From Squalus acanthias (taxonomy: Eukaryota): a DNA stretch of 64,000 nt. The notes beneath the pieces are model-generated. The model was not told the DNA's origin, did not search any database, and saw only the letters and a list, made by a program, of their open reading frames with translations. The position numbers and the translations under genes were made by a program. Position 1 is the first letter of the stretch, and each line of letters begins with the position of its first letter. The stretch spans positions 92,072,001 to 92,136,000 of the forward strand of contig CM059432.1 in assembly GCA_030390025.1 (NCBI GenBank), written 5' to 3'. Positions 12,579 to 47,231 of this stretch are shown here, piece after piece.

Positions 12579-12615
12579 AGTTAACGTTTCAGGTCGATGA
12601 CCTTTCGTCAGAACT
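12579..12615 (-). ncRNA. Minimal type I hammerhead ribozyme motif
   Basis: Reverse complement of 13661-13697. Confidence 0.65.
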
Positions 12616-13503: not shown

Positions 13504-13660
13504 ATTAAGAGATATTCAAGGCAAAAGGAGATGGTAATGTCCCTTAACTTCTCCTGCCTTCTATCCTATCACAGACCTTCCCTTTTGTTCTTTCATCCCC
13601 TCCCCCCTTTCCCAGCCCCTGCACTTGCTTAAAAATCTGTTCCATTTCCTGCTTTTTTCT

Positions 13661-13697
13661 AGTTCTGACGAAAGGTCATCGACCTGAAACGTTAACT
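13661..13697 (+). ncRNA. Minimal type I hammerhead ribozyme motif
   Basis: Stem I AGTT/AACT, core CTGACGA, stem II AGGTC-atc-GACCT, GAAA, palindromic ACGT stem III, GUU cleavage triplet. Confidence 0.65.
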
Positions 13698-18988: not shown

Positions 18989-20110
18989 ACGGGGCTCTAC
19001 TTGCAGTGCCCCACGCGCTCGAGTATGACGGAGATGGAGCAGAGGCAGCGAAGAAGAAGACAAGATGCTCACAGAGGGAAGAGGTGCAGGGGCAGGAGGG
19101 CTCTCAGCAGGAGACCTCACCCACCTAGGGTCTTCCGAGAGCACCTCTCCTGCCTGCACTTCAGCCAGGAGCAGTGTATTAGGAGGCTACGCTTCACCAA
19201 GGAGGTGGTCACAGAACGCTGCCACCTCCTACAACCAAATCTGCAGCCTCAGAACAGGGTGACCATGGCTCTCTCAGTGACTCTCAAGGTCACTGTCACC
19301 CTCAATTTTTTCACCACCGGATCCTTCTAGTCTGCAGCAGCCGACATAGCTAACATCTCCCAGTTCGCCATCCATCGCTGCATCCGGGAGGTCACAGAGG
19401 CTCTCTACTCCAGGAGAAGGGACTTCATTGTCTTCTCTTGAAACAGAGAGAAGCAGGACAAGTGCACATGTGACTTTGCCAGGATAGCGGGCTTGCCCAT
19501 GGCGCAGGGCGCCATCGACTGCACACACGTGGCTTTGCGGGTACAGTATAACAATTCCGAGATGTTCCGTAGCCGCAAAGGCTACCACTCACTTAATGTA
19601 CAGTTGTTGTGCAACCACGCCCAGTGCATCATGATGGTGAATGCCCGCTATCCTGATGCCTTCATCCTGCGCCAGTTTGGTGTGCCATCAATCTTCCAGC
19701 CACCACGTCAAACCCAAGGGTGGCTGCTCGGAGTCATGGGCTATCTGCTCTGCACCTGGCTGATGACGCCCCTCCACAACCCCACCACTCGTGGCCAGCA
19801 ATCATATAATTACAGCTGTGCTGCCACGAAGAATGTCATCGAGCAGACGATCAGGGTGCTCAAGCAACTGTTCTGCTACCTTGAGAGCCCTCCAGTACTC
19901 ACCAGAGCGAGTGTCCCATTTCATGGTGGTCTGCTGCATGCTCCACAACTTGGCCATCATGAAGACGCAGCCCTTGCCACCAGGGGTTCCGGGGCCACCT
20001 CAGGAGGACAAGGAGGAGGAGGAGGAAGAAGAGGAAGAGGAGGAGGATGAGGAAGAGGAAGAGAAAGAGGAGGAGGAAGAGAGGAGGCAGGCAGCGAATC
20101 CCTCTGTCAC
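18989..20110 (+). pseudogene. Harbinger (HARBI1-like) transposase pseudogene
   Basis: Motifs RRLRFTKEVV, LNFFTTGSF, GAIDCTHV, KGYHSLNVQ, IEQTIRVLKQ, CCMLHN and a Glu-rich tail. In-frame TAG at 19328-19330, the GD motif changed to GV, and a frameshift near 19885. Confidence 0.9.
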
Positions 20111-20257
20111 GGAATATCACAGCGTTCTCCTCGGCACAAAGCTGAAATGACACATTCCAAACAAAATTCATAAATTTATCAAATTCAAATCAAAAGAACA
20201 AAATCAACTAATCATTCTTGTACATTCCCTTAGTGCCTGTCTTTCATGTGCCTCTTC

Positions 20258-22174
20258 CTATTCTAGTGCTCCTATGAAGTGCTCCCCCAGTGGCTGCAGC
20301 ATGGCTGGTGGAAGGCTGCTGACTTTCAGTGGGGGAGACTGCAGATGGCCTTGCAGGACAACCTCAAGCAGCTCTGGGCCTAGAAGGCCTGGCTGTAGAC
20401 TGCACAACCTCGGCATGGGTGGCAGCAGTCTGGGTTGGCTGACAGGCAGCAGCAAGAGCACTGACAGAGTGGCATTGGTGGAAGTATGAATGCAGTCATT
20501 CCTGAGAGATGACAGCAGGTTCTTGCTCCACGGAGCCACTGCCACGCCTCTGGGGCGGTGCCTCAACAATCCTAGTAATTTGTTGGATTGCTGGCCCGCT
20601 GCAACACCCTGCAAGCTCCTTTCGACACTCGTAAACTTGGCGACGATGGCAGCAGTCTGAGCTTCCTCTGCAGCAGTGAGACGTTGGGTCATTTCCGCCT
20701 ATGCTGCAATGGAAGCTGCGAGATCGCTCATCACACCTACAAGCAATATTCCCTTCAAGCTGCATGGCCGCGCAACACTCCGGGCTCCCACCAGCCGGTG
20801 AACCAGCTTTTAAATTCAAAACACGGCACATGCGCGGACTTTGAATGTGCCGTGCAGCCTGTTAAAGGGGCCATGGGCCCAAAAACAAATTACGGGGAAC
20901 ATTGCCCACCAGCATATTTGGGTCCACAAGGTCTCTCCTGGAGTTGCCCATCATTTCTATCCTGGAAATCATGGGCTCCAAACTCTGCGCAAAGACCCGT
21001 GCAAAGTTGGAGCCAGAATCCTGCATGCTCCTTGACACTGACAAGAGGCTCTCTGGCAGGCTTGCCATTGCACCAAGCATTTCCATGTGCATGCTCATCA
21101 CCCTTATTCTGAAGGCCGCCCCATCGAGCTCATCATCTGAGTCCTGTGGAGCAGAACATGTATGCGAACTCTCCCTCCGGAGAACTGGCACCTGAACTAC
21201 CCTTTCCCCCTAGCCTGGCTGCAGCCCACTTGTGCCTGGTAACTCACCACGTGGTGATTCTGCCTTTTTATAACCCTCTAAAGTATGCGCAGTGCCATTT
21301 TCTGAGCTGGTGTCTGCGAGTGTTAGATGCAGTGCCAGTGTCCCTTCTCCTCCATCAGTATCTTTCTTATGTTCAGTGATAGGCTAGGCAGCTTGGAAGT
21401 TCTTGGGTATCTGAAAGCAGAAAGGCACAAGGGTCGGGTTGTGGTGAGGGAAGGGGGGGAAAGCAAGAGATCCATGCCTACACCATCAACAGCTTGTAAG
21501 TGAGAAGAGATTGTGGGATGAGGGGGAAGTGGGATGTGAGAAGAAGGATTAGTTATGAGCATACTTTCATCATCAGCAATGCTTTCAACTTTTCCGCTCG
21601 CCACGAACTCTGTCACAACCCCTCCAATTATTTGCAACACTGATTTCTCCAGGTCAGTTAGTTTCTCAATCCTCGCTTGTTACCCACCTGTCTGCTGTTG
21701 CTCGTGGCGGTTGTGTGCCACCTTGTCCTGCAAGAGAAAGGGAAGTGTGTGAGTGAGTGTGGAGCAATGTGTTTGGGTGATGTGCCTTTCATGGTTGATT
21801 AGCTAGCAGTGTGTGCAAGGTGTGAGATGTGGGTGTGAGTATTGCAGCAGTGATAAGATTGTGAGGGTGAAGTATTGTTGGTAGATGAGTAATGGGGGTG
21901 TGGTGCATTGAGTAGTGTATGAGGCTTGTGGCACAGATGGTGGGATATGCCATTTGCTGAAGCCTTCACTCACCTGGATCCAGGTACTGGGGACAACACT
22001 CGTCGCTGTGACAGATTGTGCTATCTCCTCCCAGATCCTTCTGCTGATTACCTTTAATGGCATCTTGCCCCCATGTGGGTATAGGACATCCCATCGGTGT
22101 TGGACCCCCAGGACCAAGGGCTCCAATGCAGCATCTGAGAAACGTCTCACCCTTTCTCAAGGGTGTTGAGCCAT
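20258..22174 (-). pseudogene. Harbinger Myb/SANT-like gene, 3 exons (~22174-21972, ~21727-21566, ~21410-20258), disrupted
   Basis: RFSDAALEPLV...IWEEIAQSV in exon 1 and DKVAHNR..TGG in exon 2. GT/AG sites at positions equivalent to the intact gene at 29768. Contains stops and frameshifts; exon ends are approximate. Confidence 0.75.
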
Positions 22175-23332
22175 GGCTTCTTTTCACCTGACAGTGAGGT
22201 GATTCTGCAACAAAGCACCTCCCCTTTAAGTAGTAGAGAGAGCCGAGGCCAAACTTTATTGGCCAGTAGACTGCTCCAGATATTGGCCCCCCGTTGAGCG
22301 CTAAGCCAATCAGCAGCGCGTTTAGTGGTGAGATCAGTGCTGCAATCATGTTAATGAGCAGCCAGCATGAATTTTGCGTGCTGCCTGCACCACTTAGAAC
22401 AGGTGCAGGCAAATAGCGCTGGGCGGTGCCCCCGCCCATTTTCGGGTCTTATCCAATTTCTAGGCCTTTATTTCTCCTTCTGTACCTGATTTGACTCTAA
22501 TTCACCCTATTTCTTTCTCTATTGTTCTGCTGTTTCTTTCTCAATCCTTAAGTCTTATTGGTAAAGGAGATAGACTATTAGTCCCACCATTCACTAAGGT
22601 CCCAGATGCCCCGTTGCCTTCGCTATGTTGTTATCAGCTCGCACTTCCAGCAAGTTACAACGCAAAACAATTTTGAGCTGAAGAGTGCAGAAAAAAGTCT
22701 AACTAAAGGCACAAACCATGAGATGCCCCGCTCCAGCAAGATTCGACCTAATCAAATGGGGCCAGTGACGATTTGGCGGACAGATTGCGGGCGAGCTGCA
22801 GGAGCACAGAGAGACTTGCCGGGAAGATGTTTAAACATAGAAGTTGGGTGGAAGCAGCTTCCACTTGACCTTCCTTTCACTGAAAGGTTCCTGCGCTATT
22901 CCAGCATAGCAGGTGTACCTGAAACGGTGAATAAATTCACCCCCTTGATGCATTTTCGTACAGAAATGCAACCATCATTCCATCTGACGTGATTTTTTAT
23001 CGTCATCTGGAATTTATGTGGGGGTTTCTCCTGATTGTCCGCTGTAACTTTGGTAGAAGATTGGCAGAAGACCCAGAGAAACAGTGTAAATAGCCATTTA
23101 CGCCATTTCTCCGCGGTTTCCAACAAAATTACAGCTAGAGTTTGTGGAAACCCCCATGGCAATTCTACCTGACACCAGTGGAATTGTACTGGATTCCAAT
23201 TAAATTCAATCTATTAACAGTCTATGGGAAATCAAAGTGCTATTTGTGCAACTGAACTTCAGAGTTAAGAACATTTCTGACAATATTTACCGAGGAAAGT
23301 ATTTGAAATAATTTGTATTGGCTCAGAATAAT

Positions 23333-27462: not shown

Positions 27463-29135
27463 AGTTAAACATTTTCCTTATTTGGTCTCCTGTCCTTTGG
27501 GTGTTGGACACAGCATTAATACATTGGGCACTTCCTCCCAAGGTAAGTCCACATTTTTGTGGAAAGGCTGCCTTGCAGATCTTAGTAACCTGCCTTTTCT
27601 TTACACCTTGCCAAAGGCAGATGTTCTCCAGCCATCTCATTGTTCTTTTCTGCAACATAACATTCTGACCAGCAAATTCCTCAGTGGCCAACAGGCAATA
27701 CACAACCCTTTTAAGTTGCAGCTACCACCCTTTAATAGCTGCGGCTGCACCCAATCCCTATTAGAAATAGGTTAGTAGGCCCAATAAAGGGCAGGAGCAC
27801 CCTATGAATATGTAATTAGGCTGACTTTGAGAAATCACATGCAATTTTGACGAACACAAAGCTCACTGTGCTCCAGTCCTCCTGATGCTGGATAATATAC
27901 TGTTATATGTTCAAATTATTGTAGCAGAGTTGGCATGTTAATAGAGTTAACAAACATGTAAGTTTGAAGCGACACGTCCATTTATATTTAAATAAGGTTA
28001 AATAGCAATTTTAGGTGATTGACTAGATATTGTCTCCACCTCCGTTAGCATATTGTAGTGCTGAGCCACCTTCTTGTCTGCTGATTAGCCACCTGCCCAC
28101 TGGAAAATGACCTCCATCTATTGAGCCTCTTCTCGTGCTCTCCTCTTGCTGTTATAAATCAAGGTCTAGAGGTTGTAGGAACAGAGCCAACAGATAAAAA
28201 AAGGACAGAAAGAGTATGACAGCAGAGATGCTTGCAAAATACAGCAATATCACAATCTTTAAAAAAGGAAACTAGCATAATGAATATTACCTATTACTAT
28301 ACAAATTGATAGACATAAAATGTTGATGTAGACCTGGAATAAATATTATTCACAGAACTAGAAGTTCTCCAATTAGAAGCACAGATAATAGGTGAACTGC
28401 AAATTGCAGAACAGACAGACACTTCATAAGCAACAGTGATTAGACTCAAAATTCATTATATAAACCGTAAAAAGACATTTGTAACCCTCCCAAAAAAAGC
28501 CTAGACTGGAACAGTGGCACTGATACAGTCACAATAAATAAAAGGCAATTTGCCAGGGCCTTCAAGCATACAACATTATCATAATACAAACCAATCATGG
28601 CAACAGTCCAGATTCAAGCACGCAACAGATGATGACAGGAGATTTCTTTCTAAAAGTAGGAAATAAAAATACACCAAAATGAAACAGTGACATTTTGAAT
28701 TAACCCACTAGATCACTCTCCATATGTGAAACATAGTGGAACTCACCAACTACACAATATGCTGCAGTGTTTCATAATTTCTATTACAAAGTAAGATGGT
28801 TCTCAACTTGAACGATAATTACTAGCTGTGATAGATGCTTAAAACAGAGAAGGAGCAATGGAGAGAGTGAGAAGTGGTCGGGGGTGGGGTGAGAAGAAGA
28901 GGAAGCGGAAGGGGAGGAGGGGTGATTTGAATCCACCATGCTTCACAATGTTCTACTGAAGTTCTTTAAAGATTCAGTAGTTCAAATTTAAACATGTAAA
29001 ATGAAATAAAACCACCTGCAGGTTTCAGACTTCTCCCTAGTTGGTGACTTCAAAGACAGCCCATTCAGCTGCCTAACTCTATTTAAGTGAGAAGTCGCAC
29101 AACACCAGGTTATAGTCCAACAGTTTTATTTGAAA

Positions 29136-29173
29136 TCACAAGCTTTCGGAGCGGCTGCTCCTTCGTCAGGTGA
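29136..29173 (-). ncRNA. Minimal type I hammerhead ribozyme motif
   Basis: Reverse complement of 29356-29392 with loop II one base longer. Confidence 0.6.
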
Positions 29174-29355
29174 AGTAAAGGAATACAAATCGACAAAGCA
29201 TATATAGATAGAGAACAATGCATGTGTAGCGTACAATGGCAGATGACTACATTTAATCCTCCTGACTGCCTTTTGTCACACCTCGGCAGAGAAACAATCA
29301 GGTCAGCCAGGAAGGCACCACATCAATATGCTTTGTCGATTTGTATTCCTTTACT

Positions 29356-29392
29356 TCACCTGACGAAGGAGCAGCGCTCCGAAAGCTTGTGA
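29356..29392 (+). ncRNA. Minimal type I hammerhead ribozyme motif
   Basis: Stem I TCAC/GTGA, core CTGACGA, stem II GGAG-cagcg-CTCC, GAAA, palindromic AGCT stem III, CUU triplet. Confidence 0.65.
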
Positions 29393-29767
29393 TTTCAAAT
29401 AAAACTGTTGGGGGTAGAAATTAGGTCGCGCCCCATTTGGGGCGCAAATATCGTCCGCGCGCAAATATTAGCGCCTGGCGCTAATTATCGGCACTGACAG
29501 GAAACTTCACTTTTACCGCCCCGGGAGGTGAGTGGAGCGCTAAATTAGGCGCTGCACACCTCTCTTAAGGCGCAAAGGCCTAGGAGTGAGGCGCTACCTC
29601 AGCGCACGAGCGCAGCGCAGCTGCTGCCAGTTAGCGAGGGAACACAGACACACTGGCGCCGGACACTTCTTAAAGCAGGGGGGGCCACTTGCTCCCCAGC
29701 CACACCCTGCTCATTGCAGCCTTGAATCTCAGCCTGGAGAGACCTGTAATCCATTTTGCTGCCAAGC

Positions 29768-31677
29768 ATGGAGAGGGTGAGAGAACGCGCTCATCGCTTC
29801 ACCGAGCGGGCCTTGGATGCTCTGGTTGACGCAGTGGAGCGCAGACGATGCATGCTGTTCCCGGAGAGTGGCAGGAGGCCTTTGCCACGCGAGTTCAGAA
29901 GAGTGTGGAGGGAGGTGGCTCAGAGCGTCTCCTCCAGGAGCATGGTGCCCAGGACCCATGTCCAGTGCCGCAAAAAGTTCAACGACCTCACTCGGGTCGT
30001 CAGGGTGAGTGGCTTTTTCTCAATACCTCTCCATCCCTCCATCTCAACCTCACTCTATGGCCAGAGGGTCTTAAAACCCCAATGCACAACACTCATGCAA
30101 CACCTATGGCCCTTTCATCAAACACACACACACATTCCACACTTTGCATACAGTAAGGGCTATTCACCTATGGGAGGCACATCAGGCAAGACCATGGCTG
30201 CATATTGTAAGGGCTATTCACCTATGGGAGGCACATCAGGCAAGACCATGGCTGTATATTTACTCAGATGCTGTCCTTTTTCTTGCAGGCTAAGCTGGCT
30301 CATAATCGGAGACAGCAGCAACGGACGGGTGGAGGGCGGCTTCAGCTGCAACCCCTCAGCGATCTGGAGGAGCGCGTCCACAGGATTGTGGCAAGCCGGG
30401 TGATCGGTCCCGTCGCCACTGGGGACGCCGACCCCGTTGTGGACAGCAATGGTAAGGTCATCACCTTTTTGTCCTCTGTCCTTCCACTTGTCCCTCACAA
30501 TACCAGCCTTTGACACTTTCAATCCAACTTGCTAACTCGCTGCACTTATTCCTCCCTTACTGCCACCCTGTCCTCACGCTAAAGCCACTCTTGTACCTCC
30601 CTGCTTTCAGATGGTGATTCACCAGCTGAGGAGACGGGCCCTGAAGCTGCCACTGGGAGTGATGCTGCAGCTGAGGAGGAAGAGGAAGCCGGAGCATCAG
30701 TGCCACCCTCTCCCGAGGAAGCCCATGGCCACACTGGGAACACGCCTTCCCCGGAGGGGAGCAGGGGGGAAGGGGCTGATGATGGTGAAGTTCCAGGACC
30801 CAGCGGGCTGCAGCAACGCCATTGGGGGGGGAGGGAAGAACGGGGGAGCAGGGGGGAAGGGGCTGATGATGGTGAAGTTCCAGGACCCAGCGGGCTGCAG
30901 CAACGCCATGGGGGGGGGAGGGAAGAACGGGAGCCTTCTCCCCAGAGGGAGAGTATGCCAGACACTCCTAATGCAATGGACGCAGAGGAGGAGCGGCTGA
31001 TTGCAGAAATGAACAGCCAGGCGGTGGGCATGCACACTGAGCTCATGGGTGCAGTGGGAAGGGTGCCCGAATGCATTGAGGCACTGGCAAGGAGTGTGGA
31101 GCACTTCGCTGTAGCACAGGCGGATGCCACACTAAAGCTTACTGCTGCAATTCAGTCACTGGCTGCCAGGAACCCATCTGAGCCTGCTCTCATGCAGACT
31201 CAGATTGAGGCCACGCGAGCACTGACTGCTGCCATCCTCGATGGTTCGTGCACATGTCCCCGGGGCTGTCACCGCGCCGCAGCAGGCCAGCAATCTGTTC
31301 TCCGGCAAATTGCTCCGGATGCTGAAGTGCTGCCCCGTGGGAGTGCCAGTGTGTCGGGCGAGCAGGGAGTTGCTGTCCTCTCTCACGATGACAGCATTGC
31401 TGCTGCCAACACTGTCACTTCTCCACTGCACTTGCCACCGCCTGTAGGACAGACTGCTGCCGCCCATGCAGAGTTGGTGCAGTCTGCAGCCGGGCCCTCC
31501 AGGCCCAGAAGTGGTCGAGGCCGTCCTTCAGGGGCATCTGCAGTGTCAGGGTCTGACAAGCAGCAGCCTTCCACCAGCCTTGCTGCAGCCACTGAGGTCC
31601 CATTACGGAGGAGCAGTAGGGTTAGAAGGGGGGAAGTGCGCAAGGGAAGGAGATCACCCTCGAAGGGCAAAAAGTAG
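29768..31677 (+). CDS. Harbinger Myb/SANT-like DNA-binding protein; exons 29768-30004, 30289-30451, 30611-31677; 488 aa
   Basis: Trihelix motif RFTERALDALV...VWREVAQ...QCRKKFNDL. Canonical splice sites AGG|GTGAGT, TTGCAG|, G|GTAAGG, TTTCAG|. The joined 1467 nt stay in frame to TAG, with a basic C-terminal tail. Confidence 0.88.
30153..30260 (+). repeat. 54-bp tandem duplication in Myb intron 1
   Basis: GTAAGGGCTATTCACCTATGGGAGGCACATCAGGCAAGACCATGGCTG starts at 30153 and again at 30207. Single copy in the sister element. Confidence 0.9.
30757..30930 (+). repeat. 87-bp in-frame tandem duplication in Myb exon 3
   Basis: GSRGEGADDGEVPGPSGLQQRH(W/G)GGREER occurs twice. Single copy in the sister element. 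Confidence 0.9.
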
Positions 31678-31971
31678 GAGGTGTGCCAAAATGCTGGTCA
31701 TTTTTTTATTAAAGGCCGAGGTTCATGGCCCAACTTTTGTTTAGTGTTTTGGACATTATCTCCAGGTTGTGAGAACCAGTTATGTTATTGACTGTTTTTT
31801 TGTGTTTATTTCTATGAGTTTGTCATGAGGAATTGACACACACAGAGTTTGTACAATAAATAAGTTTCTGTATTCAAAATATACATGGCTGGTGGTTGGA
31901 ATTATTGGTGCCTTGGCCGGCTTAGGGGTTGCGTGCTGGGTTGATTCGTGTTTGTAGCACTGGCAGGGGCC

Positions 31972-33132
31972 CTAGAAGCGGCTTGCTATCAGCCGTTGAC
32001 GGACGGCCCTTGCAGTTTGACCATTGTGGGCCGCCCTCCTGCCTTGGTGCTGCTGCTGATCATCGTCCTCGGCCTGTTCCTCCTCTTCCTCCTCCTCCTC
32101 TTGTGGTGCTGCAAGGCCTGGTGGCATTGGCTGCGTCCTGAGGATTGCCATGTTGTGCAACATGCAGCACACCACTACGAATTTGGAAACTTGCTCAGGC
32201 AAGTACTGCAGGGCTCCTCCGGAATGGTCCAGACAGCGGAATCGTTGTTTGAGCACGCCGATTGTGCGCTCAATAATGTTCCTCGTTGCTTGTTGGCTTT
32301 CCTGGTACCGCAGCTCAGCAGGGGTGTTTGGCGCACGGAGCGGTGTCATCAGCCAGGTGCTCAATGCGTACCCCTTGTCCCCCAGAAGCCAACCAACTGG
32401 CTGATGCGGTGCCTCGAAAATTTCTGCCACAGTACTCTGGCGCAGGATGAAAGCATCGTGGCAGCTGCCCGGATAGTGGGCATTGACAGCGAGAATCACC
32501 TGTCTGTGGTCACAGACCAACTGCACATTCAAGGAATGGAACCCCTTTCTGTTCCGGAACTCCTCTGCATTCTCTCGCGGAGCACGCAAAGCCACATGCG
32601 TGCAGTCAATGGCGCCCTGCACCATGGGGAAGCCCGCTACCCTCGCAAAGCCCATAGCACGGTCATGCTGCTTGTCTGGGGTCATAGGGAAGGAGATGAA
32701 GTCTCGTCTCCTTGTGAAGAGGGCATTGGTGACCTGCCGGATGCAGCGATGCACCGCAAACTGGGAGATATTGGCGAGGTCCCCAACAGCAGCTTGGAAT
32801 GAGCCAGTGGCGTAGAAGTTCAAAGCCACTGTGACCTTCACTGCCACCGACAGAGACGTCCTGGACCTCAGCTGAGGCTGCAGATCTGGCTGCAGCAGGT
32901 GGCAGAGCTCAGTGACCACCTCCTTGCTGAATCGCAGCCTTCGCAAACACAGCTCCTCGGACATGTGGATGTAGGAGAGCTGTTCACGATATACCCTGGG
33001 AGGGTAAGCTCTCCTGTACATGCGCCTGATGGCCCTCCTCCGTCTGGCCATCATTGCCACTCTCTGTCTGCGTCTCACTCTCCTCCGATTGAGCTGGAGC
33101 AGGACGACGCCCCCAATCATTGCAGCCCCCAT
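31972..33132 (-). CDS. Harbinger DDE transposase (HARBI1-like), 386 aa, intact
   Basis: HTH region RRLRFSKEVV...ALNFYATGSFQ. Catalytic motifs GAIDCTH, LLGDKGY and IERTIGVLKQRFRCL, then CCMLHN and an acidic tail. Confidence 0.95.
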   Translation of the reverse strand: MGAAMIGGVVLLQLNRRRVRRRQRVAMMARRRRAIRRMYRRAYPPRVYREQLSYIHMSEELCLRRLRFSKEVVTELCHLLQPDLQPQLRSRTSLSVAVKVTVALNFYATGSFQAAVGDLANISQFAVHRCIRQVTNALFTRRRDFISFPMTPDKQHDRAMGFARVAGFPMVQGAIDCTHVALRAPRENAEEFRNRKGFHSLNVQLVCDHRQVILAVNAHYPGSCHDAFILRQSTVAEIFEAPHQPVGWLLGDKGYALSTWLMTPLRAPNTPAELRYQESQQATRNIIERTIGVLKQRFRCLDHSGGALQYLPEQVSKFVVVCCMLHNMAILRTQPMPPGLAAPQEEEEEEEEQAEDDDQQQHQGRRAAHNGQTARAVRQRLIASRF

Positions 33133-34658
33133 ATTCTCTTTGGCAGAAAAGTAATGAGGTACAGCAACGAAAGTAGCAGCAAAGTTAGGATGAACTAGGC
33201 CAAACTACCTCACAAAGCGTTGAGTCAATGTAGAAGTCTCTCTCTCTCTCTCTCCGAATCTCTCTCTCTCTCTCAGAACGAGTGGTGCATAAATGTCGAC
33301 CACAGAAAAAGACAGGAAGAGGCCCCCTTTAAATAGCGCCCCCCCCCCAGCCCCACACCGATTGATAACGTTCCAGTCTTCCGGTCGTTGGAAGCGCCAG
33401 GCGGTAAGGCAGGGGGCGCCACTCAATTTCCGCTCCGGGGCGCCCCAAGGGCGTTGCACCACGGAATTACGTCACAATCTGCGCGCGCAGGTGGTCGCAG
33501 CGGTAAGTTTTAGCGCCGCCGCACAATCTCAAGTTAAGTTCTCGAGCGGCGCAAACAGCGCTGCGCCCGGGCGTTAGCGCCTTAACGCCCCATTAGCGCC
33601 CATTTAAGGCGCTAACGGGAGGCGCAACCAACTGAATTTTTACCCCTTGGACTATAACCTGGTGTTGTGCGACTTCTCACTTTTGTCCACCCCAGTCCAA
33701 CACCGGCATCTCCGCATCATAACTCTATTTAGTAATGAAGAATAAACATAAGCAAGCAGAAATCAGAGTCAAATTTCTCAGCAGGTGAGAGCAGATGATG
33801 ACAACAACAGGCTGCAGTGTGGCCTTAAGACAGGCCTCCGATTTAAGAAATAAGGGATAAAAATCAACAGGACGAATATCTCAGTGCCAGGATGTGCGTA
33901 CTTGTGACTTCTGGTGCTGAGCCAGCCGACGTATGCGAGGTCAGATGGAGGTCACCTAATTCTAATATTCTGGGTGCGCTTGCACCACTAGGGCGCATCT
34001 CGGGTGCCTGCCTCCCTGCCTGAGGAGGTTAGAGTTTCTGGCATAGGGTGCCGGCTCTTGGGGCCTCCCCCAGAAAGATGTTCAAAGTGCCCATCAGAAC
34101 CCCACTATAAGGGGACTGAAAAGTAATCTTAACGTCGAATGGCTGCTATCGCTCAGCATACTGGCCCACTGCTGTTTGCCAGGACAGGGTCAAGGAAACT
34201 CCAGTTTGGGAACCTGCACCCCTGGCAACGCCCCCTCTGATGTGGGTGACCTTGTTTGGGGCTGACGGAGGCTCAGCCCCAAAAACAAGGACCTGAGAAT
34301 TTCCACTTCCAAGTATAATTCACTGCCCTTCCACCACCCTCTTGGCAGTTTTATGGTGAGCGTGCACCAGAAGGGCGGGGGACCTTCAGCCTCTAAATAC
34401 ATATCACAATTGGCCACAGCGCAGCTGAGGACAGGCCTCCAATCTAAAGAATGGATATATAATAGTTTCCGAGTTGGCCCAAGAGCTTGTGGATGGGAGA
34501 GGCAGAAGGAACCAATAGTCAGGTCAAACAACGGGGTGAGAGGCAGAGCAGGCCCAAGTAGAAGAGCAATTCGCAATAAAAATGAGAGGAAAACCTAAAG
34601 GCAATGAATATAATTATCAATATTTAATATTTTAAAAATCTGAACTTTAAAATGATAC

Positions 34659-35422: not shown

Positions 35423-35632
35423 ATGAAGAGAAAACATTTTAATGAGGCTGACATTCAGACACTCTTGGATGATGTGCAGCAGGAATAGAAAGACTGCTGA
35501 GTGCCAAGAAAAGAAATGTCCTGCATTCCATGTGGAGGGAAGTGGCAGAGGCACTGAGTGCCACATCTCTCACCTCCAGAACTACAGGACAGTGCCGGAA
35601 AAAGATTAATGATCGTCAAGGACAGGCAAGGT
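35423..35632 (+). pseudogene. Isolated Harbinger Myb/SANT exon-1 remnant from another family
   Basis: MKRKHFNEADIQTLLDDVQ and, after a frameshift, WREVAEALSATSLTSRTTGQCRKKIND, followed by an AG|GTAA donor. Confidence 0.65.
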
Positions 35633-36352: not shown

Positions 36353-38443
36353 ACTCAATCGTGTTAGAGGTTATACTTGAAAAGGAGAAAAATGCAGGGC
36401 TATGGGTAAAGTGCAGGGCCTGGGACCAACCACCACCTGCCCTACCCAAAACAAATGCAATGGCAGTGTGGCCTTCATCACCTTGGTCTTTACTCCTACT
36501 CTCTGGTTCCTTCAAGCACCTCCCTCTGTTTCACTCCTCTCACCTCACCTTTAAAATCCTCATTGTTTATTTTTCCCCAAACCCTACCCTGAATTTCTTC
36601 TTGAAATATCCTCTCTTCTTTCTTCCCTCAGGTTCTATACTGAGTGTCTCCCCATCTTGGATGCTTTCAATGTGCATCACAACTCCCCTTGTCCTTTCTC
36701 CTCTGAAATTCCCTCCTTCCTATCCTTCATGTAAACTCTCTTAAATCTCTTCCTCCCTATAAACTCTCCTACCAATATTCAAAGCTATCCCCTTGACCTC
36801 GCCATGGTTTCTCCACTCTAGCAGTCTGCTGGACCCCAACAAGGCCATCTCCAACCACTTCCTTGTATTCTTCTCCAGGCGCATACCCTTAACATTCTTC
36901 AACCCCACTTCCTTCTATAACCACCCCTGGAAAAAAACTCTTCCCAGGTTGCTTATGACTGAGTTCTCGAACTTTCTAAGTACTATTCCTTTCCTTTACA
37001 AGGTCCTTGAACATGTTGTCAGCTACTAGATCCTTGTCTATCTCACCTAAAACTCCCTAATTTAAGAACATAAGAAATAGGAGCAGGAGTAGGCCATACT
37101 CGAGCTTGCTCCACCATTCAATAAGATCATGGCTGACCTTCGACCTCAACTCCACTTTCCCGCCCAATCCCCATATCCCTTGATTCCCTTAGAGTCCAAA
37201 AATCTATCAATCTCAGCCTTGACTATACTCAACAACTGAGCATCCTCAACCCTCTGGGGTAGAGAATTCCAAAGATTCACGACCCTCTGAGTGAAGAAAT
37301 TTCTCCTCATCTCAGTCCTATCCTGAGACTACGCCCCCTAGTTCTAGACACTCCACTCACGGGAAACAACCTCTCAGCATCTACCCTGTCAATCCCCCTC
37401 AGAATCTTATATGTTTCAATGAGATCACCTCTCATTCTTCTAAACTCCAGAGAGTATAGGCGCAATCTACTCAATCTCTCCTCATAGGACAACCCTCTCA
37501 TCCCAGGAATCAATCTAGTGAACCTTCGTTGCACTGCCTCCAAGGCAAGTATATCCTTGCTTAGGTATGGAGAACAAAACTGCACACAGTACTCCAGGTG
37601 TGGTCTCACCTAAGCCCTGTACAATTGCAAGACTTCCTTACTCTTGTACTCCAACCCCCTTGCAATAAAAGCCACCATACCATTTGCCTTCCTAATTGCT
37701 TGCTGTACCTGCATGCTAACTTTCTGTGTTTCGTGTACAAGGACACCCAAATCCCTCTGAATACCAACATTTAATAGTTTCTCACCATTTAAAAAAAATA
37801 CTGTTTTCTATTCTTCCTACTAAAGTGAATAACCTCACATTTCCCCACATTATACTCCATCTGCCACCTTCTTGCCCACTCACTTAACCTGTCTATATCC
37901 CTTTGCAGGCTCTTTGGGGGGGATTTTTACAGCGAAGAGTGAGTGGTTAAAAGCACTGAAATTGACAGTGCGTCGGGAAGCTGGCTCCAACCCGCTGACT
38001 TCCGCACTTAACTGGAGCGCGTTTGGCTGCGTGCGAGAATCGCCCTCGGGAGAGGTGGGTTGCTAATTTAAATATGTTAAGAGGTAGTTAAGAGGTAATT
38101 AACAGCTTTTTTAACAGGAGTTTTCAACTTTAACTGTGTGTACACGGGATTCCTGAGCTTCCTGGACCTCACCAGTGAAAGCAAGCTGAGAGCACAGCAG
38201 CAATTGAGGGAGCTGAACAAATGGGAGGCAAAAAATCCGGTAAGTACAGAGACCTCACACCTGCTTCTTGCCGAAGTGAAAGCCTTTTGCTCACAGCACT
38301 TGTTCTGAGAGTTTGCTTTCAGTACTTTGCAGGGGATTTCTACTGCTTTGGAGGTGATTTGCACTACTTTGAAGGTCAGTCTCACTACATTGGAGGATTG
38401 TGCATCTGATCTCCACTTTCCATCTGTCATATATCAGATCAGC

Positions 38444-41400
38444 ATGGGTGTCGCTTATGCTGTTTCACCTTGGACCTCAGATGAGGACCAAGATGAGCAG
38501 CAGCAGCAACACCAGTAGGATCTGCAGCAGTCGTCTCCTCACTGACCTGCCGCTCCACAGGAGAGAGGATGAGCGCAAAGGTGCAGATCGCAGGAAGCCA
38601 TACCCGCAACACAGGGTACATAGGCAGAGGATCAGCTTCCCGGATATGTCTGAACAGCAGTGCCTCAGGAGGCTCAGGGTATCATGTCAGGTGGTGGCAG
38701 ACATTTGCAGCCTGCTGGAACAAGACCTGCTGCCAAGCGGACCTGGTGGCCACGCTTTACCAAAGTGGCCACTGCCCTCAACTTCCTCACCTCAGGCTCC
38801 TTCCAGGGATCTGCAGGAGACATTTACAGGATTTCGCAGTCGGCCGTTTACAAATGCATCACCCAGGTGACCGATGCCATGTTTGCCAGGGCAGGCGATT
38901 ATGTACACTTTACCACCGATGAAGTCAGTCAGAATGAGCAGGCGCTCAGGTTTGCAGCTCTGGCTGGCTTCCCACAGGTGCAAGGCATCATCGACTGCAC
39001 ACACGTGGCAATCAAGACACCCCCAGATCACCTAGGAGTGTTCGTGAACCGTAAGGGCTTCCACTCCATCAATGTGCAGCTTGTCTGCAACCACAAAAAG
39101 ATCATCATTCAGGTTGTGTGCCAGATTCCCAGGGAGCTGCCATGATGCATTCATCCTGCGGCAGTCCACCCTCCCTGAGCTCTTAGCGCCTCCAAACAGA
39201 CTTACTAGCTGGCTGCTTGGAGTCAAGGGCTACCCACTTAAAACGTGGCTGATGACACCAGTGAGGAACTCAAGCAGTGGGGCCCAAAAGCGCTACAATC
39301 AAAGCCACATGACGACGAGTCGCGTCATTGAGCAAACCATCGGGATGCTGAAGATACACTTTAGGTGCCTCAACAGATCTGGAGACACCCTTCAATACGC
39401 ACCACCCAGGGTCTCCAGAATGATAGAAACATAGAAACATAGAAGATAGGAGCAGGAGTAGGTCATTCGGCCCCTCGAGCCTGTTCTGCCATTTAATGAG
39501 ATCATGGCTGATCATCCAAATTCAGTACCCTGTCCCTGCTTTCTCCCCATATCCCTTGATCCCTTTAGCCTTAAGAAATATATCTAACTCCTTCTTGAAT
39601 ATATTTAATGAATTGGCCTCAACTGCCTTCTGTGGTAGAGAATTCCACAGGTTCACCACTCTCTGGGTGAAGAAATTCCTCCTCATCTCAGTCCTAAATG
39701 GCTTACCCCTTATCCTTAGACTGTGACCTCTGGTTCTGGACTCCCCCACCATCAGGAACATCCTTCCTGCATCTAGTCTGTCTAGTCCTGTTAGAATTTT
39801 ATAAGTTTCAATGAGATCCCCTCTCATTCTTCTAAACTCTAGCGAATATAAGCCTAATCGACCCAATCTCTCTTCATACGTAATTCCTGCCATCCCAGGT
39901 ATCAGTCTGGTGAATCTTCGCTGTACTCCCTCCATGGTAAGAATATCCTTCCTCAGATAAGGCGACCAAAACTGCACACAATACTCAAGGTGTGGTCTCA
40001 CCAAGGCCCTGTACAACTGCAGCAAGACATCCTTGCTCCTATACTCGAATCCTCTCGCTAGGAAGGCCAACTATTTGTCTTCTTAACCGCCTACTGCACC
40101 TGTATGCTTACCTTCAGCGACTGGTGCACAAGGACACCCAGGTCTCGTTGCACTTCCCCTTTTCCCAATCTATTGCCGTTCAGATAATAATCTGCCTTCC
40201 TGTTTTTGCCACCAAAGTGGATAACCTCGCATTTATCCACATTATACTGCATTTGCCATGCATCTGTCCAATCACCCAACCTGTCCAAATCATACTGGAG
40301 TTTCTCTGCATCCTCCTCACAGCCCACACGCCCACCCAGCTTTGTGTCATCTGCAAACTTGGAGATATTACATCTAGTTCCCTCATCTAGATCATTAATA
40401 TATATTGTGAATAGCTGGGGTCCTAGCACCGATCCCTGCGGTACCCCACTAGTCACTGCCTGCCACTCGGAAAAAGACTCGTTTATTCCAACTCTTTGCT
40501 TCCTGTCTGCCAACTAGTTCTCTATCCAAGTCAGTACCTTACCCCCAATCCCATGTGCTTTAACTTTGCACGCTAATCTCTTATGCGTGACCTTATCGAA
40601 AGCCTTCTGAAAGACCAAATACACCACATCTACTGGTTCTCCCTTATCTATTCTACCAGTTACATCCTCAAAAAATTCCAGTAGATTAGTCAAGCATGAT
40701 TTAACTTTTGTAAATCCATGTTGACTTTGTCCGATGCTGTCACTGTTTTCCAAGTGCTCTGCTATTACATCTTCTATAATGGACTCTAGCATTTTCCCCA
40801 CTACTGATGTCAAGCTTACCGGTCTATAATTCCCCGTTTTCTCTCTACCACCTTTTTTAAATAGTGGGGTTACATTAGCTACCCTCCAATCCATGGGAAC
40901 TGTTCCAGAGTCTATAGAATTTTGGAAGATAACCAGCAATGCATCTATTATTTCTGGGGCCACTTCCTTAAGTACCCTAGGATGTAGATTATCAGGCCCT
41001 GGGGATTTATCGGCCTTCAATCCTGTCAATTTCCCTAACACCATTTCCCTACAAATACTGATTTCATTCAGTTCCTCCCTCTCATTAGATCCTATGTTCC
41101 CCGACATCTCTGGGAGGTTATTTGTGTCCTCCTTTGTGAAGACAGAACCAAAGTATGTATTTAATTGGTCAGCCATTTCTTTGTTCCCCATTATAAATTC
41201 CCCTGATTCTGACTGCAAGGGACCTACACTTGACTTCACCAATCTTTTTCTCTTCACGTATCTATAGAAGCTTTTACAGTCAGTTTTTATGTTCCCTGCA
41301 AGTTTACTCTCATGCTCTATTTTCCCCCTCTTAATTAATCCCTTTGTCCTCCTTTGCTGAATCCTAAGCTGCTCCCAATCCTCAGGTTTGCTGCTTTTTC

Positions 41401-41996
41401 TGGCCAATTTATATGTGCTCTCCTTGGATCTTATGCTATCCCTAATTTCCCTTGTTAGCCACGGTTGAGTCAACTTTTTTGTTTTATTTTTATGCCAAAC
41501 AGGGATGAACAAATTCTGTAGTTCATCCATGCGATCTTTAAATGTTTGCCATTGCCTATCCACCATCAACCCTTTAAGTAACATTCCCCAATCCATCCTA
41601 GCCAACCAATCCATCCTAGCCAACTCGCGCCTCATACCATCATAGTTTCCTTTATTTAAATTCAGGACCCTAGTCTCTGAGTCAACTACTTCACTCTCCA
41701 TCTTAATGAAGAATTCTATCATATTATGATCGCTCCTCCCCAAGGGGCCTCACACAACAAGATTGCTAATTAATCCTTTCTCATTAAATAATACCGTGAT
41801 GTACTGCGCTCTACACAACATAGCACAGCAGCGAGGATTGGAGCGACAGGAGGAGCAAGGTGTAGAGCGCAGTGCCTCTTCAGAGGGGAACCAGGAGGAG
41901 GAACAGGAGGAGGAGGAGGAACATCATGTGGCCATGGCACCAGCAGGTGTGCATATTGCTGCCCAGGATGGACTTATAATGGCAAGATTTAGTTAG
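38444..41996 (+). pseudogene. Harbinger transposase pseudogene (38444-39421 and ~41796-41996)
   Basis: [57 protein letters not shown]; after the CR1 insertion, VMYCALHN and an acidic tail. Frameshifted. Confidence 0.9.
39422..41795 (-). mobile_element. 5'-truncated CR1 LINE with few disruptions
   Basis: ORFs 40514-41743, 40091-40513 and 39522-40070 give EN end (SDHN), RT (FADDTK) and C-terminus. (TTCTATGT)n tail at 39422-39445. Confidence 0.92.
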
Positions 41997-42297
41997 GTTT
42001 CTCACTGCACCATCTGGCAGCCACATGCTGAACCCACTGCCAATCACCCCCCCCCCCCAACCCCCACCCCCACTTCCCCAGCAGAAAGCAGTCCTGCAAT
42101 CAACAAAGCATTCCTTTCACAGACACCCATTGCTCGGACTTAAGTCTTGTCTTACCATTCACAACTGAGAAGGCCACTTGCCTGGCTGCAGGCAAAAATG
42201 GGCAAGACGGGAAAGTGGTGCAATTAAATAATTTTTATGTGGCTCAAAATTTAAACAGAACATTGTGTAACACACCAATGGCCATATCCTTGTGCAA

Positions 42298-44094
42298 CTA
42301 CAAATCTTTCATCTTCCTTTTTCTACTACTCCTACATTGTACAATCCCTGTGGCTTCAGCAGAGGTAGAGGCAGGCTGCTCACACCCTGCTCTGATTGCT
42401 GAGATGCACTTAGCCGACGTCCTCTGGGTTTTGGAGCCCGTGAGGGCCCCTGCCAAATACTGCTCCACCTGCACCTGTGCAGAGGCAAACTCAGCCATTG
42501 GGACAGGAGGCAGCATGTGGGGCTCTGACTGGGGGGCGGTGCAACGAGTGACAAGTGGAAGCACTTTGAGCAGACTCCCCACTTCCATGTCCCCTTTCTC
42601 CATCTTCCCTCTCAATGCCCTGCTAGCAATGAGCTGGAGAGCACTTTGCTGCACATCAGTGGGGCGCTGAACGGCCAAGTCTAAGTTTTGATCAATCCTA
42701 TTTAAAGTGCCATTTATAGTGTGCAAGCCATTGGTGATGGCCAGCATGCAGTCGTTTGAGTGCTGTGTTTGATGGTCACTCTTTCCATGGACGAAGACAT
42801 CATAGCAAAGGCCTGCGACATCATGCCACTCATGCTTGAGACAACTCCTCCATTCTCTCTGCAAATGTGCACAGTGCGGCTGGAAATCCTGCAAAAACCT
42901 CGCACATTTTTTGCTGCTGCTCCTGAATCCTCTTCATCAACAGCCCCCAAGGTTCAGCATCTGTGTCCAGCTGAACAGAGCTTGGGAAGAAAGAAAGCCC
43001 TCCGACGCGGACTCTCCACTGCTGTCCCTGTCTCCACCATCTGCTCTTGCTCACATGTGATGCGTGAGACACCAGCTGACAACACAACTGTCTGTCTTAC
43101 TGGTTCCACCGACGTGTGTGTATCTAAGCTGGTGCATGGTCGGCATGAGTCCTGTGACTGTGCACCCTCAGAGTGAGTGACCTCTTCTGAGGAGTTGTTG
43201 TCGTCCTCTGGCACCACCTCCTGCGGGACACCTTGATGGGCTTGTGGGAGACTAAAGACAGTAATTGGAACTGTCACAGTAAGGATGTTGTAAGTGAATA
43301 TTATGCACATGTCATATTTCACTGGCTGCTGACATCAAGTCAACATGAGAGACTGTTGTATGCCATGTGGCTGTGTGATATTTAATTCTGTCACCAGGCA
43401 GCTGGGAGGCCCCAATCTCTCCATCTCCGATCGCCAGGCCGCCGACACTCGGCTTATCTCCAGCACATCCTCCTCTACAGCTGTCAGTGTGGTGATGACT
43501 GGAGGGCCACCTCCTGTTCTCTGTCTCTCCCAGGTGTTCTGTGCTCTCTTCTCCTGCAAGGAGGGAATCAAGAGACCTTTGAGTGAGAGTCATGGAATGT
43601 GTGGAAGGGATGGATGGGCAACATCTGTTGAGGGTGACTATGAGGGAGAGGCGTGGCACTGCATTAAGATGAGGGTGAGTGTCAGAGGTGGATGGTCAGA
43701 TGGGGATGTGAGGAAGTGCATAGACAGAGAGGGATGGGTGCACCTGCAAGGTACGTTGGTGTGGGGAGTGATGTGCAGGGGTAGGCTCGGGAAGGCTGAG
43801 TGAGGGGGCTGGGGTGGCACACACATCAGGATGTAGTTGAATGTGGCATTGTACTCACCTTTCCAGCCCTCATGAGGTCATTAAACTGCTTCCAGCACTA
43901 TATCCAGGAGCATGGCACCACACTCCTGCTGATCTCCTCAGCGATCTCCAGCCGTACCTTCTTGGTCTTTGAAGCAGGCTCCTTCCTCCCATCAGCTGGA
44001 ATAGTATTTCCCTGTGAGCCCTTATGCACCGCAGCATCAGTTCTATGGAGGCATCATTGAATGGAGGCGTAGCCTTAGCACGTTGCAAGTCCAT
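42298..44094 (-). pseudogene. Harbinger Myb/SANT-like gene, 3 exons (~44094-43859, 43553-43395, ~43243-42298), frameshifted
   Basis: PPFNDASIEL, WLEIAEEIS...CWKQFNDLMR, then EKRAQN...TGGGPP. Splice sites are equivalent to the intact gene. Confidence 0.75.
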
Positions 44095-45193
44095 TCTTGC
44101 TTCCTCTGTTTCCCCCACCTCCACAATCCTTCAACTGTCATCATTGCAGTATTCTGTAAATACTTCAGCTGAAATAGATCCAAACAAGTCGTCATCACGC
44201 CTGCTCGCGTTAATTGGACTAGAAACCCGGAATTCAGATGCAAATACACTCGCTGGGTCAAAAAGCCACTGATAGACGTGCTGCAGTTACTTCCGGGTTT
44301 CCCCCACGCTCCCAGCACCCCCACTCCCAGTGGGTCTCCAGGTAAAAATTCCGGCCTTTGTGTCCTCCTCACAGCTTACTTCCCCACCTAGCTTTGTATC
44401 GTCAGCAAACTTGGATACATTACTCTTGGTCCCTTCATCTAAGTCATTAATATAGATTGTAAATAGCTGAGGTCCAAGCACTGATCCTTGCGGCACCCCA
44501 CCAGTTACAGCCTGCCAACCTGAAAATGACCCATTTATTCCACTCTCTGCTTTCTGTCCTTTAACCAATCATCTATCCATGCTAATGTATTAACCCCAAT
44601 CCCATGAGATCTTATCTTGTGTAATAACCTTTCGTGTGGCATCTTATTGAATGCCTTTTGAAAATCAAAATAGACTACATCCAATGGTTCCACTTTATCT
44701 ACCCTGCTCGTTACATTCTCAAAAAACTCTAATACATTTGTCAACATGATTTCCCTTGCATAAAACCACATTGACTCCATCTAATCATATCATGGATTCC
44801 AGCATTTTCCTGAGGGCTGATGTCAGGCTAACTGGCCTGTAGTTCCCTGTTTTCTCTCTCCCTCCTTTCTTGAATAGTAGGATTACATTAGCTACCTTCC
44901 AATCCACTGGGACTGTTCCAGAATCTAGGGAATTTTAGAAGATCACAACCAATGCATCCACTATCTCTGCAGCCACCTCTTTTAGTACCCTAGGATGAAG
45001 GCCATCAGGCCCAGGGGATTTGTTGGCTTTACATCCCATTAATTTCTCCAGCACTTTTTCTCTACTGATAATAGTTACCTTAAGTTCCTCATTTTCATTA
45101 GATCCTTGGTTCCCCACTATTTCTGGTATGTTTTTTATGTCTTCTACTGTGAAGACAAATAAAAATATTTGTTTAACATCGCTACGATTTCCT

Positions 45194-47085
45194 TTTTTTT
45201 AATTCGTTTATGGGATCTGGGCGTCGCTGGCAATGCCAGCATTTATTGCCCATCCCTAGTTGCCCTTGAGAAGGTGGTGGTGAGCCGCCTTCTTGAACCG
45301 CTGCAGACCATGTGGTGATGGTACTCCCACAGTGCTGTTAGGTAGGGAGTTCCAGGATTTTGACCCAGCGACGATGAAGGATCGGCGATATACTTCTAAG
45401 TCAGGATGGTGTGTGACTTGGAGGGGAACTTGGAGGTAGTGGTGTTCCCATGCGCCTGCTGCTCTTGTCTTTCTAGGTGGAAGAGGTCGCGGGTTTGAGA
45501 GGTGCTGCCGAAGAAGTCTTGGCGAGTTGCTGCTGTGCATCTTGTAGATGGTACACACTGCAGCCACGGTACGCCGGTGGTGGAGGGAGTGAATGTTTAA
45601 GGTGGTGGATGGGGTGCCAATCAAGCGGGCTGCTTTGTCCTGGATGGTGTCGAGCTTCTTGAGTGTTGATGGAGCTGCACTCATCCAGGCAAGTGGAGAG
45701 TATTCCATCACACTCCTTACTTGTGCCTTGTAGATGGTGAAAAGGCTTTGGGAAGTCAGGAGGTGAGACACTCGCCACAGAATACCCAGCCTCTGACCTG
45801 GTCTTGTTACCACAGTATTTATGTGGCTGGTCCAGTTAAGTTTCTGGTTAATGGTGACCCCTAGGATGTTGATAGTGGGGGATTCGGCGATGGTACTGCC
45901 ATTGAATGTCAAGGGGAGGTGGTTAGACTCTCGCTTGTAGGAGATAGTCATTGCCTGGCACTTGTGTGGCGCGAATGTTACCTGCCACTTATCAGCCCAA
46001 GCCTGAACGTCGTCCAGGTCTTATTGCATGCGGGCATGGACTGCTTCATTATCTGTGGAGTTGCGAATGGCGCTGAACTCTGTGCAGTCATCAGCGAACA
46101 GCCGCATTTCTGACCTTATGTTGGAGGGAAGGTCATTGATGAAGCAGCTGAAGATGGTTGGGCCTAGGACACTGCCCTGAGGAACTCCTGCAGCGATGTC
46201 CTGGGTCTGTGATGATTTACCTTCAACCACCACAACCATCTTCCTTTGTGCTAGGTATGACTCCAGCCAGTGGAGCGTTTTCCCCCTGATTCCCATTGAC
46301 TTCAGTTTTACTAGGGCTCCTTGATGCCAGACTCGGTCAAATGCTGCCTTGATGTCAAGGGCAGTCACTCTCACCTCACCTCTGGAATTCAGCTCCTTTG
46401 TCCATGTTTGGACCAAGGCTGTAATGAGGTCAGGAGCCGAGTGGTCTTGGTGGAAGCCAAACTGGGCATCAGTGAGCAGGTTATTGCTGAGTAAGTGCCG
46501 CTTGATAGCACTGTCGATGACACCTTCCATCACTTTGCTGATGATTGAGAGTAGACTGATGGGGTGGTAACTGGCCGGTTTAGATTTGTCCTGCTTTTTG
46601 TGGACAAGACATACCTGGGCAGTTTTCCACATTGTCGGATAGATGCCAGTGTTGTAGCTGTACTGGAACAGCTTGGCTAGAGGCGCGGCTAGTTCTGGAA
46701 CACAAGTCTTCAGCACGGTAGCCGGGATGTTGTCGGGGCCCATAGCCTTTGCTGTATCCAGTGCGCTCAGCCGTTTCTTGATATCACGTGGAGTGAATCG
46801 AATTGGTTGAAGAATGACTTCTGTGATGGTGGGGACCTTGGGAGTAGGTCGATATGGATCATCCACTCGGCACTTCTGGCTGAAGTTGGTTGCAAACGCT
46901 TCAGCCTTGTCTTTTGCACTCACGTGCTGGGCTCCACCATCGTTGTGGATGGGGATATTCTTCGAGCCACCTCCTCCCGTTAGTTGTTTAATGGTCCACT
47001 ACCATTCACGACTGGATGTGGCAGGACTGCAGAGCTTTGATCTGATCCGTTGATTGTGAGATCGCTTAGCCCTGTCTATAGACTT
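45194..47085 (-). mobile_element. 5'-truncated CR1-group LINE family B
   Basis: ORF 46021-46923 has RT motifs ([24 protein letters not shown]); ORF 45256-45951 is the C-terminus. Same tail as 1-972. Confidence 0.92.
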
Positions 47086-47231
47086 ATTCCCTTATACCCC
47101 ATTATAATTTCTCCTGTCCCAACCTCTAAGGGACCAATGTTTACTTTTGCTACCCTCTTCCTTTTTACATACTTGTGGAAGCTCTTATAATCTGTTTTTA
47201 TTTATCTCACTAGTTTACACTTATCTCACTA

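Follow-up and report, generated by a model that had tools for sequence, protein, structure and literature searches.

The 64,000-nt window of the Squalus acanthias genome analysed here (GCA_030390025.1, contig CM059432.1, positions 92,072,001 to 92,136,000 of the forward strand) contains a structurally complete two-component Harbinger transposon at positions 29411–33646 (4,236 bp), in which both open reading frames (ORFs) are open and which comes from a high-copy, low-divergence family. This focal element very probably belongs to an abundant Harbinger family (PHIS superfamily) of low divergence in an elasmobranch genome, of which it is a full-length, autonomous-type copy. It would have been inserted by cut-and-paste into a Penelope-like pseudo-long terminal repeat (pseudo-LTR), at a site similar to the target known for vertebrate Harbingers, and would since have changed too little to lose either ORF. 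The reading is based on the terminal inverted repeats (TIRs), the target site duplication (TSD) and the empty site, the open ORFs with their recognizable domains, the conserved splice sites, the abundance of the family, the synonymous variants of the transposase gene, and the arms of the host repeat, which differ at one of 119 positions.

Element ends and an internal empty site

The TIRs are 12 bp in length (29411–29422, plus strand, starting with GGGG, and 33635–33646, minus strand). The left end and the reverse complement of the right end match at 11 of the 12 positions, and the matching decays further inward. Both ends are bordered by TTG (29408–29410 and 33647–33649), a 3-bp TSD whose lone match would arise by chance in 1 of 64 cases. 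The transposon breaks one arm of a small inverted repeat. The opposite arm (29085–29203) carries a single TTG and is identical at 118 of 119 positions to the interrupted arm from which the element and one TTG have been removed. Thus, the opposite arm serves as an internal empty site, which proves the boundaries and the TSD and sets a bound on the age of the insertion. The first-pass annotation had placed the element at 29411–33646 with TIRs and a 3-bp TSD, and every coordinate of its anatomy was correct. What it did not contain is the nesting of the transposon in a Penelope-like inverted repeat, which supplies this unusually clean empty site, and the tandem duplications of 54 nt and 87 nt within the element. 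In the sequencing data, of which contigs from 4 of the 24 listed runs (X1, X10, X17 and X19) were used, six contigs of run X19 exit the element exactly at 33646 into mixed flanks, and none of the contigs extends across the whole locus.

The subterminal regions on the left (29423–29660) and on the right (33397–33634) are rich in GGCGCTAA-like repeats, and GGCGCTAA itself occurs twice at the left end and four times at the right end. The density of GGCGC is 36–44 per kb in both end regions vs 1.9 inside the element and 0.6 in the left flank. By analogy with the better-studied systems described below, these repeats are candidate binding sites of the Myb-like protein.

The transposase gene

The transposase gene (31972–33132, minus strand) encodes 386 aa in an ORF that runs from 33132 to 31975 with no stop inside. 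The product matches Pfam DDE_Tnp_4 (PF13359) with an E-value of 4.2e-37, and its catalytic triad consists of D176 (codon at 32607), D252 (32379) and E288 (32271), with a spacing of 35 between the second D and E. The triad residues are shared by most of the aligned homologues (98/120 for D176, 93/119 for D252 and 76/117 for E288). The open D/D/E transposase of 386 aa proposed from the letters alone was thereby borne out. Of the 153 variant rows, the 40 with the best support include three in the transposase, all of them synonymous.

An AlphaFold2 model built on a 32-sequence alignment has a mean predicted local distance difference test (pLDDT) score of 87, and it places D176 in a strand, D252 just past a strand and E288 in a helix. 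The best structural matches of the model are the transposases of piggyBac, Tn5, ISCth4 and Tn4430, with middling Z-scores of 8.6–9.3 and root-mean-square deviations of 4.2–5.7 over 205–243 aligned residues. A Foldseek search returned nothing at E≤0.001, and a sequence search of the PDB detected no solved relative. A complex prediction for residues 30–345 of the transposase and 250–345 of the Myb-like protein scored 0.01, which gives no verdict and was used neither for nor against an interaction.

Among the 120 of 361 transposase homologues that were inspected, the best-scoring ones come from sharks and rays and are at most 66% identical; the databases label the homologues ‘putative nuclease HARBI1’. 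Neither of the two proteins was found by exact-sequence look-up in the protein collection (0/2), and metagenome scans for relatives found nothing.

The transposase gene converges with the Myb-like gene on a shared 3′ region (31678–31971). AATAAA-type signals at 31855 (plus strand) and at 31705 and 31805 (minus strand) may serve the respective transcripts.

The Myb-like gene and its predicted splicing

The second gene lies on the plus strand and is predicted to consist of three exons. Exon 1 (29768–30004) encodes a Myb/SANT domain within 79 aa (Pfam Myb_DNA-bind_5, PF13873, E=1.3e-9), exon 2 spans 30289–30451, and exon 3 (30611–31677) encodes an acidic linker, a helical middle and a basic tail and contains a tandem duplication of 87 nt (30756–30929) that keeps the frame. 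The predicted introns, of 284 nt (30005–30288, with a 54-nt tandem duplication at 30145–30252) and 159 nt (30452–30610), both have GT..AG borders and polypyrimidine tracts. Joined in silico, the three exons give 1,467 nt, or 488 aa and a stop codon. Exon 3 had no Pfam match, and a search with exon 1 among longer proteins returned a single match, from a ray, with 50% identity.

The gene model is supported by comparison with a sister element at 62137–64000 (plus strand), which is 84–88% identical and runs past the end of the window. The ATG and all four splice sites are found at homologous places in the sister, and a third element, which lies near 21730 and is more distant, shares the intron 1 acceptor and its phase. 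The ratio of non-synonymous to synonymous substitution (dN/dS) relative to the sister is 0.30 in exon 1 and 0.38 in exons 1 and 2 combined (Fisher p=0.002), which points to purifying selection on these two exons. The spliced Myb mRNA is therefore a prediction with comparative support; the splice model of the first-pass annotation, leading through canonical GT..AG sites to an uninterrupted 488-aa protein, held on these terms.

The introns differ from the sister at 8.0% of positions vs about 11% in the exons (p=0.07; p=0.047 vs four-fold sites). We considered a hidden function of the introns in the focal and sister elements and rejected it for this pair, as the effect fades when CpG sites are left out (p=0.24 and 0.41). 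The apparent conservation is in good part accounted for by intron 1 being free of CpG: its observed/expected ratio is 0.0, the ratio in exon 1 and both element ends is 0.74–1.04, and that in the flanks is about 0.4.

Abundance of the family and its relatives in the window

The stretch is present in 20 runs from 11 studies. In the DNA run X1, which also contains the unique flanks, the depth of the element interior is at minimum 8,247 times and in the median 21,012 times that of the single-copy flank. As this ratio is a summed contig depth and not a copy number, and is distorted by overlapping contigs, by relatives down to 92% identity and by only 55% of the run being read, the safe reading is that the family has thousands of copies. 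Of the 34,773 contigs of run X1 that were used, 9,517 are at least 99% alike, a count that includes contigs of the host repeat.

Five further related elements, full-length, deleted or decayed, are present in the window. In the sister element, the loss of 1 bp near focal position 31157 shifts the frame of the Myb gene and leads to a stop at Myb codon 290, with the splice sites kept. A non-autonomous deletion derivative of 893 bp (48792–49684, minus strand) has both ends and an ATA TSD (48789–48791/49685–49687); its left end is 86.5% identical to the sister vs 82.4% to the focal copy. A decayed two-gene Harbinger of another family (about 19076–22290) has a transposase that is 61% identical and broken by stops, and shares the intron 1 acceptor. 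Another decayed transposase (38592–39425) is 35% identical, a further piece of a related element lies at 52870–52940, and decayed transposase/Myb fragments are found at 35530–35613 and 43868–44002.

The host repeat and the target site

The host unit (29085–33719) amounts to about 400 bp when the transposon is subtracted, and it is enclosed by a perfect 12-bp TSD (29074–29085 and 33720–33731). It begins with the inverted arm (29085–29203, minus strand) that provides the empty site. The direct copy 5′ of the Harbinger follows (29204–29410, plus strand), in which 29326–29410 mirrors the inverted arm. Beyond the transposon, 33650–33682 completes the interrupted arm, and 33683–33719 forms a tail of about 37 bp at one end only. 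Loose contig ends at 33720 were seen in three runs.

Both arms carry a minimal hammerhead motif. The motif in the direct copy (29356–29392, plus strand) has the layout of a minimal type-I hammerhead, with a 4-bp helix I, CUGANGA, a 5-bp helix II, GAAA and a palindromic helix III, and its predicted cut falls after 29388; the motif in the inverted arm matches the descriptor at 29173 (minus strand). The descriptor, which we built after the account of these ribozymes in PMC4209133, has four matches in the window and none in 30 mononucleotide shuffles. An Rfam search gave no match, and single-strand folding of the host arm was no better than that of shuffles (z=0.04), as expected for a minimal hammerhead. 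The putative ribozyme is thus read from the motif and its context, and its cleavage is a prediction. We also considered insertion at the hammerhead cleavage triplet and rejected it, since the predicted cut is about 20 nt 5′ of the Harbinger.

Penelope-like insertions have been reported to consist of an inverted truncated copy beside a direct copy, with a 30–40-bp tail at one end (PMC8557442), and minimal hammerheads are reported for Penelope-like elements (PMC4209133). The host repeat resembles such a pseudo-LTR in its inverted and direct partial copies, its one-sided tail and the minimal hammerhead in both arms. Unlike a full Penelope-like element, this insertion of about 400 bp has no reverse transcriptase or GIY-YIG ORF. 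We assign the host to the Penelope-like pseudo-LTR insertions by structure and motif, the 64-kb window containing no full-length copy.

The 15-bp target of the focal element agrees with the consensus given for zebrafish Harbinger3_DR (PMC3016246) at 8 of 12 flanking positions. Of the 63,985 positions in the window, 323 attain this score, which shares first place within the host copy. As it is rare in the window and tied best in the host, the nesting is explicable by ordinary target preference. Only two complete sites are available, and their matches of 8/12 and 7/12 are among the best 0.5% and 2.7% of positions in the window, respectively.

A second repeat family with minimal hammerheads lies elsewhere in the window, with motifs at 13661 (plus strand) and 12615 (minus strand) in opposite orientations within 12517–13765. 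A related copy at 10107–10211 was also seen; this repeat probably belongs to another Penelope-like family.

Comparison with known Harbinger systems

The focal element combines short TIRs that have G as their first letter, a 3-bp TSD that the empty site confirms, a DDE_Tnp_4-type transposase with an intact triad, and a second gene with a Myb/SANT domain, which are the marks of PHIS/Harbinger elements in the broad sense. It is a member of this broad superfamily, and by analogy it would work like Harbinger3_DR, the zebrafish element that was reconstructed and tested in cells (PMC3016246, PMC2836001, PMC9710019). The two elements share a DDE transposase, a Myb-like gene, short TIRs, a 3-bp TSD, repeated subterminal motifs and a target that agrees at 8 of 12 positions. 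They differ in the central triplet, which is TTG in the focal element vs CWG in Harbinger3_DR, and in that the former is a natural copy and the latter a consensus; the likeness is one of described features.

Within the superfamily, Han et al. 2015 recorded, in a range of eukaryotic hosts that includes fish, 88 PIF/Harbinger, 11 NuwaI and 22 NuwaII families in which both ORFs are intact, and gave TWA as the TSD of PIF/Harbinger sensu stricto and CWG as that of NuwaI (PMC4482050). The focal element resembles the NuwaI, NuwaII and PIF/Harbinger groups, with their TIRs starting with GG(G), lengths of 4.1–4.7 kb and two ORFs, and has the GGG start, two ORFs and length of about 4.4 kb described for NuwaI. 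As in the PHIS groups, the first D lies among strands, the second D between a strand and a helix, and E in a helix. Unlike in these groups, the TSD matches none of TWA, CWG and C|TNA|G, and the related window element has ATA. Because its TSD agrees with that of neither PIF/Harbinger nor NuwaI, we filed the element in neither subgroup.

The Harbinger-Snek elements of sea kraits are similar in being mass-amplified natural copies with two intact ORFs and in having non-autonomous deletion derivatives. Laticauda colubrina is reported to have 269 fully intact copies, and in L. laticaudata RNA-seq covers both ORFs of the single intact copy (PMC8437027). Harbinger-Snek differs in its documented horizontal transfer and in the RNA over both ORFs, whereas the homologues of the focal element are spread through sharks and rays. 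As intact vertebrate copies have been published (PMC8437027, PMC4482050), the emphasis of the first-pass annotation on a naturally intact element was right about both ORFs being open and overstated how rare this is.

In the literature located, cell-based tests of a vertebrate Harbinger are confined to the reconstructed element of zebrafish, and a natural copy with two ORFs is therefore a ready substrate for studies of the two-protein mechanism and of target choice. No title or abstract opening was found on a shark Harbinger family or on cell assays of a native vertebrate Harbinger, in a search to which subscription journals and Repbase were mostly outside scope, and PMC4255032 does not mention Harbinger. 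The family may thus be undescribed for sharks in the literature located, while the naturally intact Harbinger as such is already known. A very abundant young DNA transposon contrasts with the picture of the elephant shark genome in PMC5381603, which is dominated by long interspersed nuclear elements (LINEs); the same source, citing Smith et al. 2012, reports that Harbingers of the coelacanth are still accumulating. The value of the focal element is tempered by the published intact copies and by cgSpy, a relative in the wider superfamily that is active in its native form and already serves as a tool (PMC11304231). The element is a reasonable but unproven tool candidate, and its worth hinges on an activity assay.

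Proposed mechanism of transposition

In Harbinger3_DR and Ping/Pong, the Myb protein and the transposase are both required, with subterminal binding and nuclear entry as reported steps (PMC2836001, PMC9710019). By analogy, the spliced Myb/SANT protein would bind the repeated subterminal motifs as well as the transposase, which it would take into the nucleus. The DDE transposase would excise the element and reinsert it with a 3-nt stagger that yields the TSD. Both proteins would be needed for excision, which would usually be precise, and deletion derivatives such as 48792–49684 could be moved in trans.

Age of the focal copy and state of its two proteins

The difference between the host arms, at 1 of 119 positions (95% confidence interval 0.02–4.6%), caps the age of the insertion, with the reservation that inverted arms can be homogenised. 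Under a neutral-decay model in which 0.1 indels per substitution are assumed, both ORFs stay open with a probability of 0.31 at 0.4% decay, 0.054 at 1% and 0.015 at 1.44%. By these odds, the focal copy has probably diverged from its parent by no more than about 1%. With so little decay (about 1% or less), open ORFs are what one would expect, and they do not prove activity. Accordingly, of the earlier claim of a complete and potentially active transposon, completeness stands by the ends, the TSD and both ORFs, and the data decide neither for nor against present activity.

Several observations weigh against a little-changed autonomous-type Harbinger copy. The TTG (TTG/CAA) of the TSD fits neither TWA nor CWG, as seen at one insertion only. 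The transposase has Q277 and Q280 (32293–32304, minus strand) in the helix bearing E288, at sites where homologues have N (103/115) and H (94/115). Exon 3 of the Myb-like gene lacks the purifying selection of the other exons when compared with the sister (dN/dS 1.1–1.2), and 18 of its 20 variant rows are non-synonymous, an excess that is not significant (p=0.09). Of 126 joints, the 15 displayed include no spliced one, and contigs cross the exon-intron borders unspliced, at donor 1 in both X17 (29929–30174) and X19 (29719–30096) and at acceptor 2 in X19 (30578–30816). The unspliced contigs fit read-through, intronic copies or DNA; X17 and X19 were taken as RNA by guess. Among the runs that contain the stretch, none is RNA on record and four are RNA by guess.

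Some of these observations bear on the possibility that the copy is open but dead, with substitutions or internal duplications acquired after insertion crippling one of the proteins. This is a serious possibility, to which we give somewhat less than even weight. The glutamines in the E288 helix would be the obvious candidates in the transposase; as no variant row falls at codons 277 and 280 among the 40 best-supported, where a private change should rank high, they may instead be family-wide. In the Myb-like gene, residue 397 differs from 99% of the X1 depth, and both the 87-nt (29-aa) duplication of exon 3 and the 54-nt duplication of intron 1 are missing from the sister. The exon 3 duplication is nevertheless in frame and in a low-complexity linker, and the transposase model folds confidently, with the mean pLDDT given above.

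A more optimistic version, which refines the reading of a little-changed Harbinger copy and does not conflict with it, is that the family is transposing now with the focal copy as a functional source element. The intact ORFs, splice sites, TIRs and TSD agree with such a source, and so do the survival odds, which fall between 0.4% and 1.44% decay and place the copy probably very near its parent. At four places (29546, 29677, 31399, which is Myb residue 397, and 33558), another letter makes up at least 96% of the X1 depth, and none of the four, again among the 40 best-supported variant rows, lies in a TIR, a splice site or the transposase. Two pieces of run X17 in the transposase have no difference over 120 and 139 nt. 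On the other side stand the missing spliced joints and unspliced contigs, the frameshifted sister and the age of the insertion. An X1 flank contig that begins inside the host tail differs from the window at 4 of 702 nt, which indicates that the host insertion is common to a diverged haplotype and older than the haplotype split. Moreover, the shark clock is slow. At the rate of 7e-10 per bp per generation reported for the epaulette shark (PMC10587355), a divergence of 0.4–1.4% corresponds to 6–21 million generations, and to half as many if the upper confidence bound is taken, the rate being borrowed from another species and CpG sites mutating faster. The divergence could thus span millions of generations, and ‘recent’ needs to be read by this clock. 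Altogether, we consider a functional source element rather unlikely.

Still less probable is the wider proposal of an undescribed elasmobranch Harbinger that still transposes in the germ line, whose native proteins, including those of this copy, work without reconstruction, and whose targets are chosen by the flanks, the central triplet being relaxed, which would make it land repeatedly in Penelope pseudo-LTRs. If true, it would provide a vertebrate Harbinger that is active in its native form and could be used for gene transfer within a small and predictable range of targets.

Recent horizontal transfer could also account for the spread of the family. Horizontal transfer is known for marine Harbingers (PMC8437027), runs labelled with seven organisms contain 36–88% of the sampled words, and the eight listed pieces of run X10 (organism D) are 98.0% identical to the focal copy, with 51 of 2,577 nt differing (33 of 2,287 in the six deeper pieces). 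However, the host repeat, the element ends and the interior in X10 are all at about 0.5–1.1e-4 of their X1 depth. That the host repeat scales like the element suggests a trace amount of DNA from the host itself or from a related one rather than transfer, and slow elasmobranch evolution also yields high identity among relatives. We regard recent transfer as improbable.

Domestication as a HARBI1/MSANTD-like pair of host genes, to which the name of the homologues and the recurrent domestication of Harbingers in vertebrates (PMC9392472) might point, is effectively refuted by the empty site and the copy depth, and the element has the TIRs and TSD whose absence is taken as the sign of domestication in PMC9710019 and sits in a young repeat.

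Other features of the window

Several long ORFs and repeats are found at 37063–41749, 44357–48823, 50403–52070 and 1–1430, which look like pieces of LINE-type (CR1/L2-like) retrotransposons. At 42032–42933, ORFs of about 210 codons overlap on both strands.

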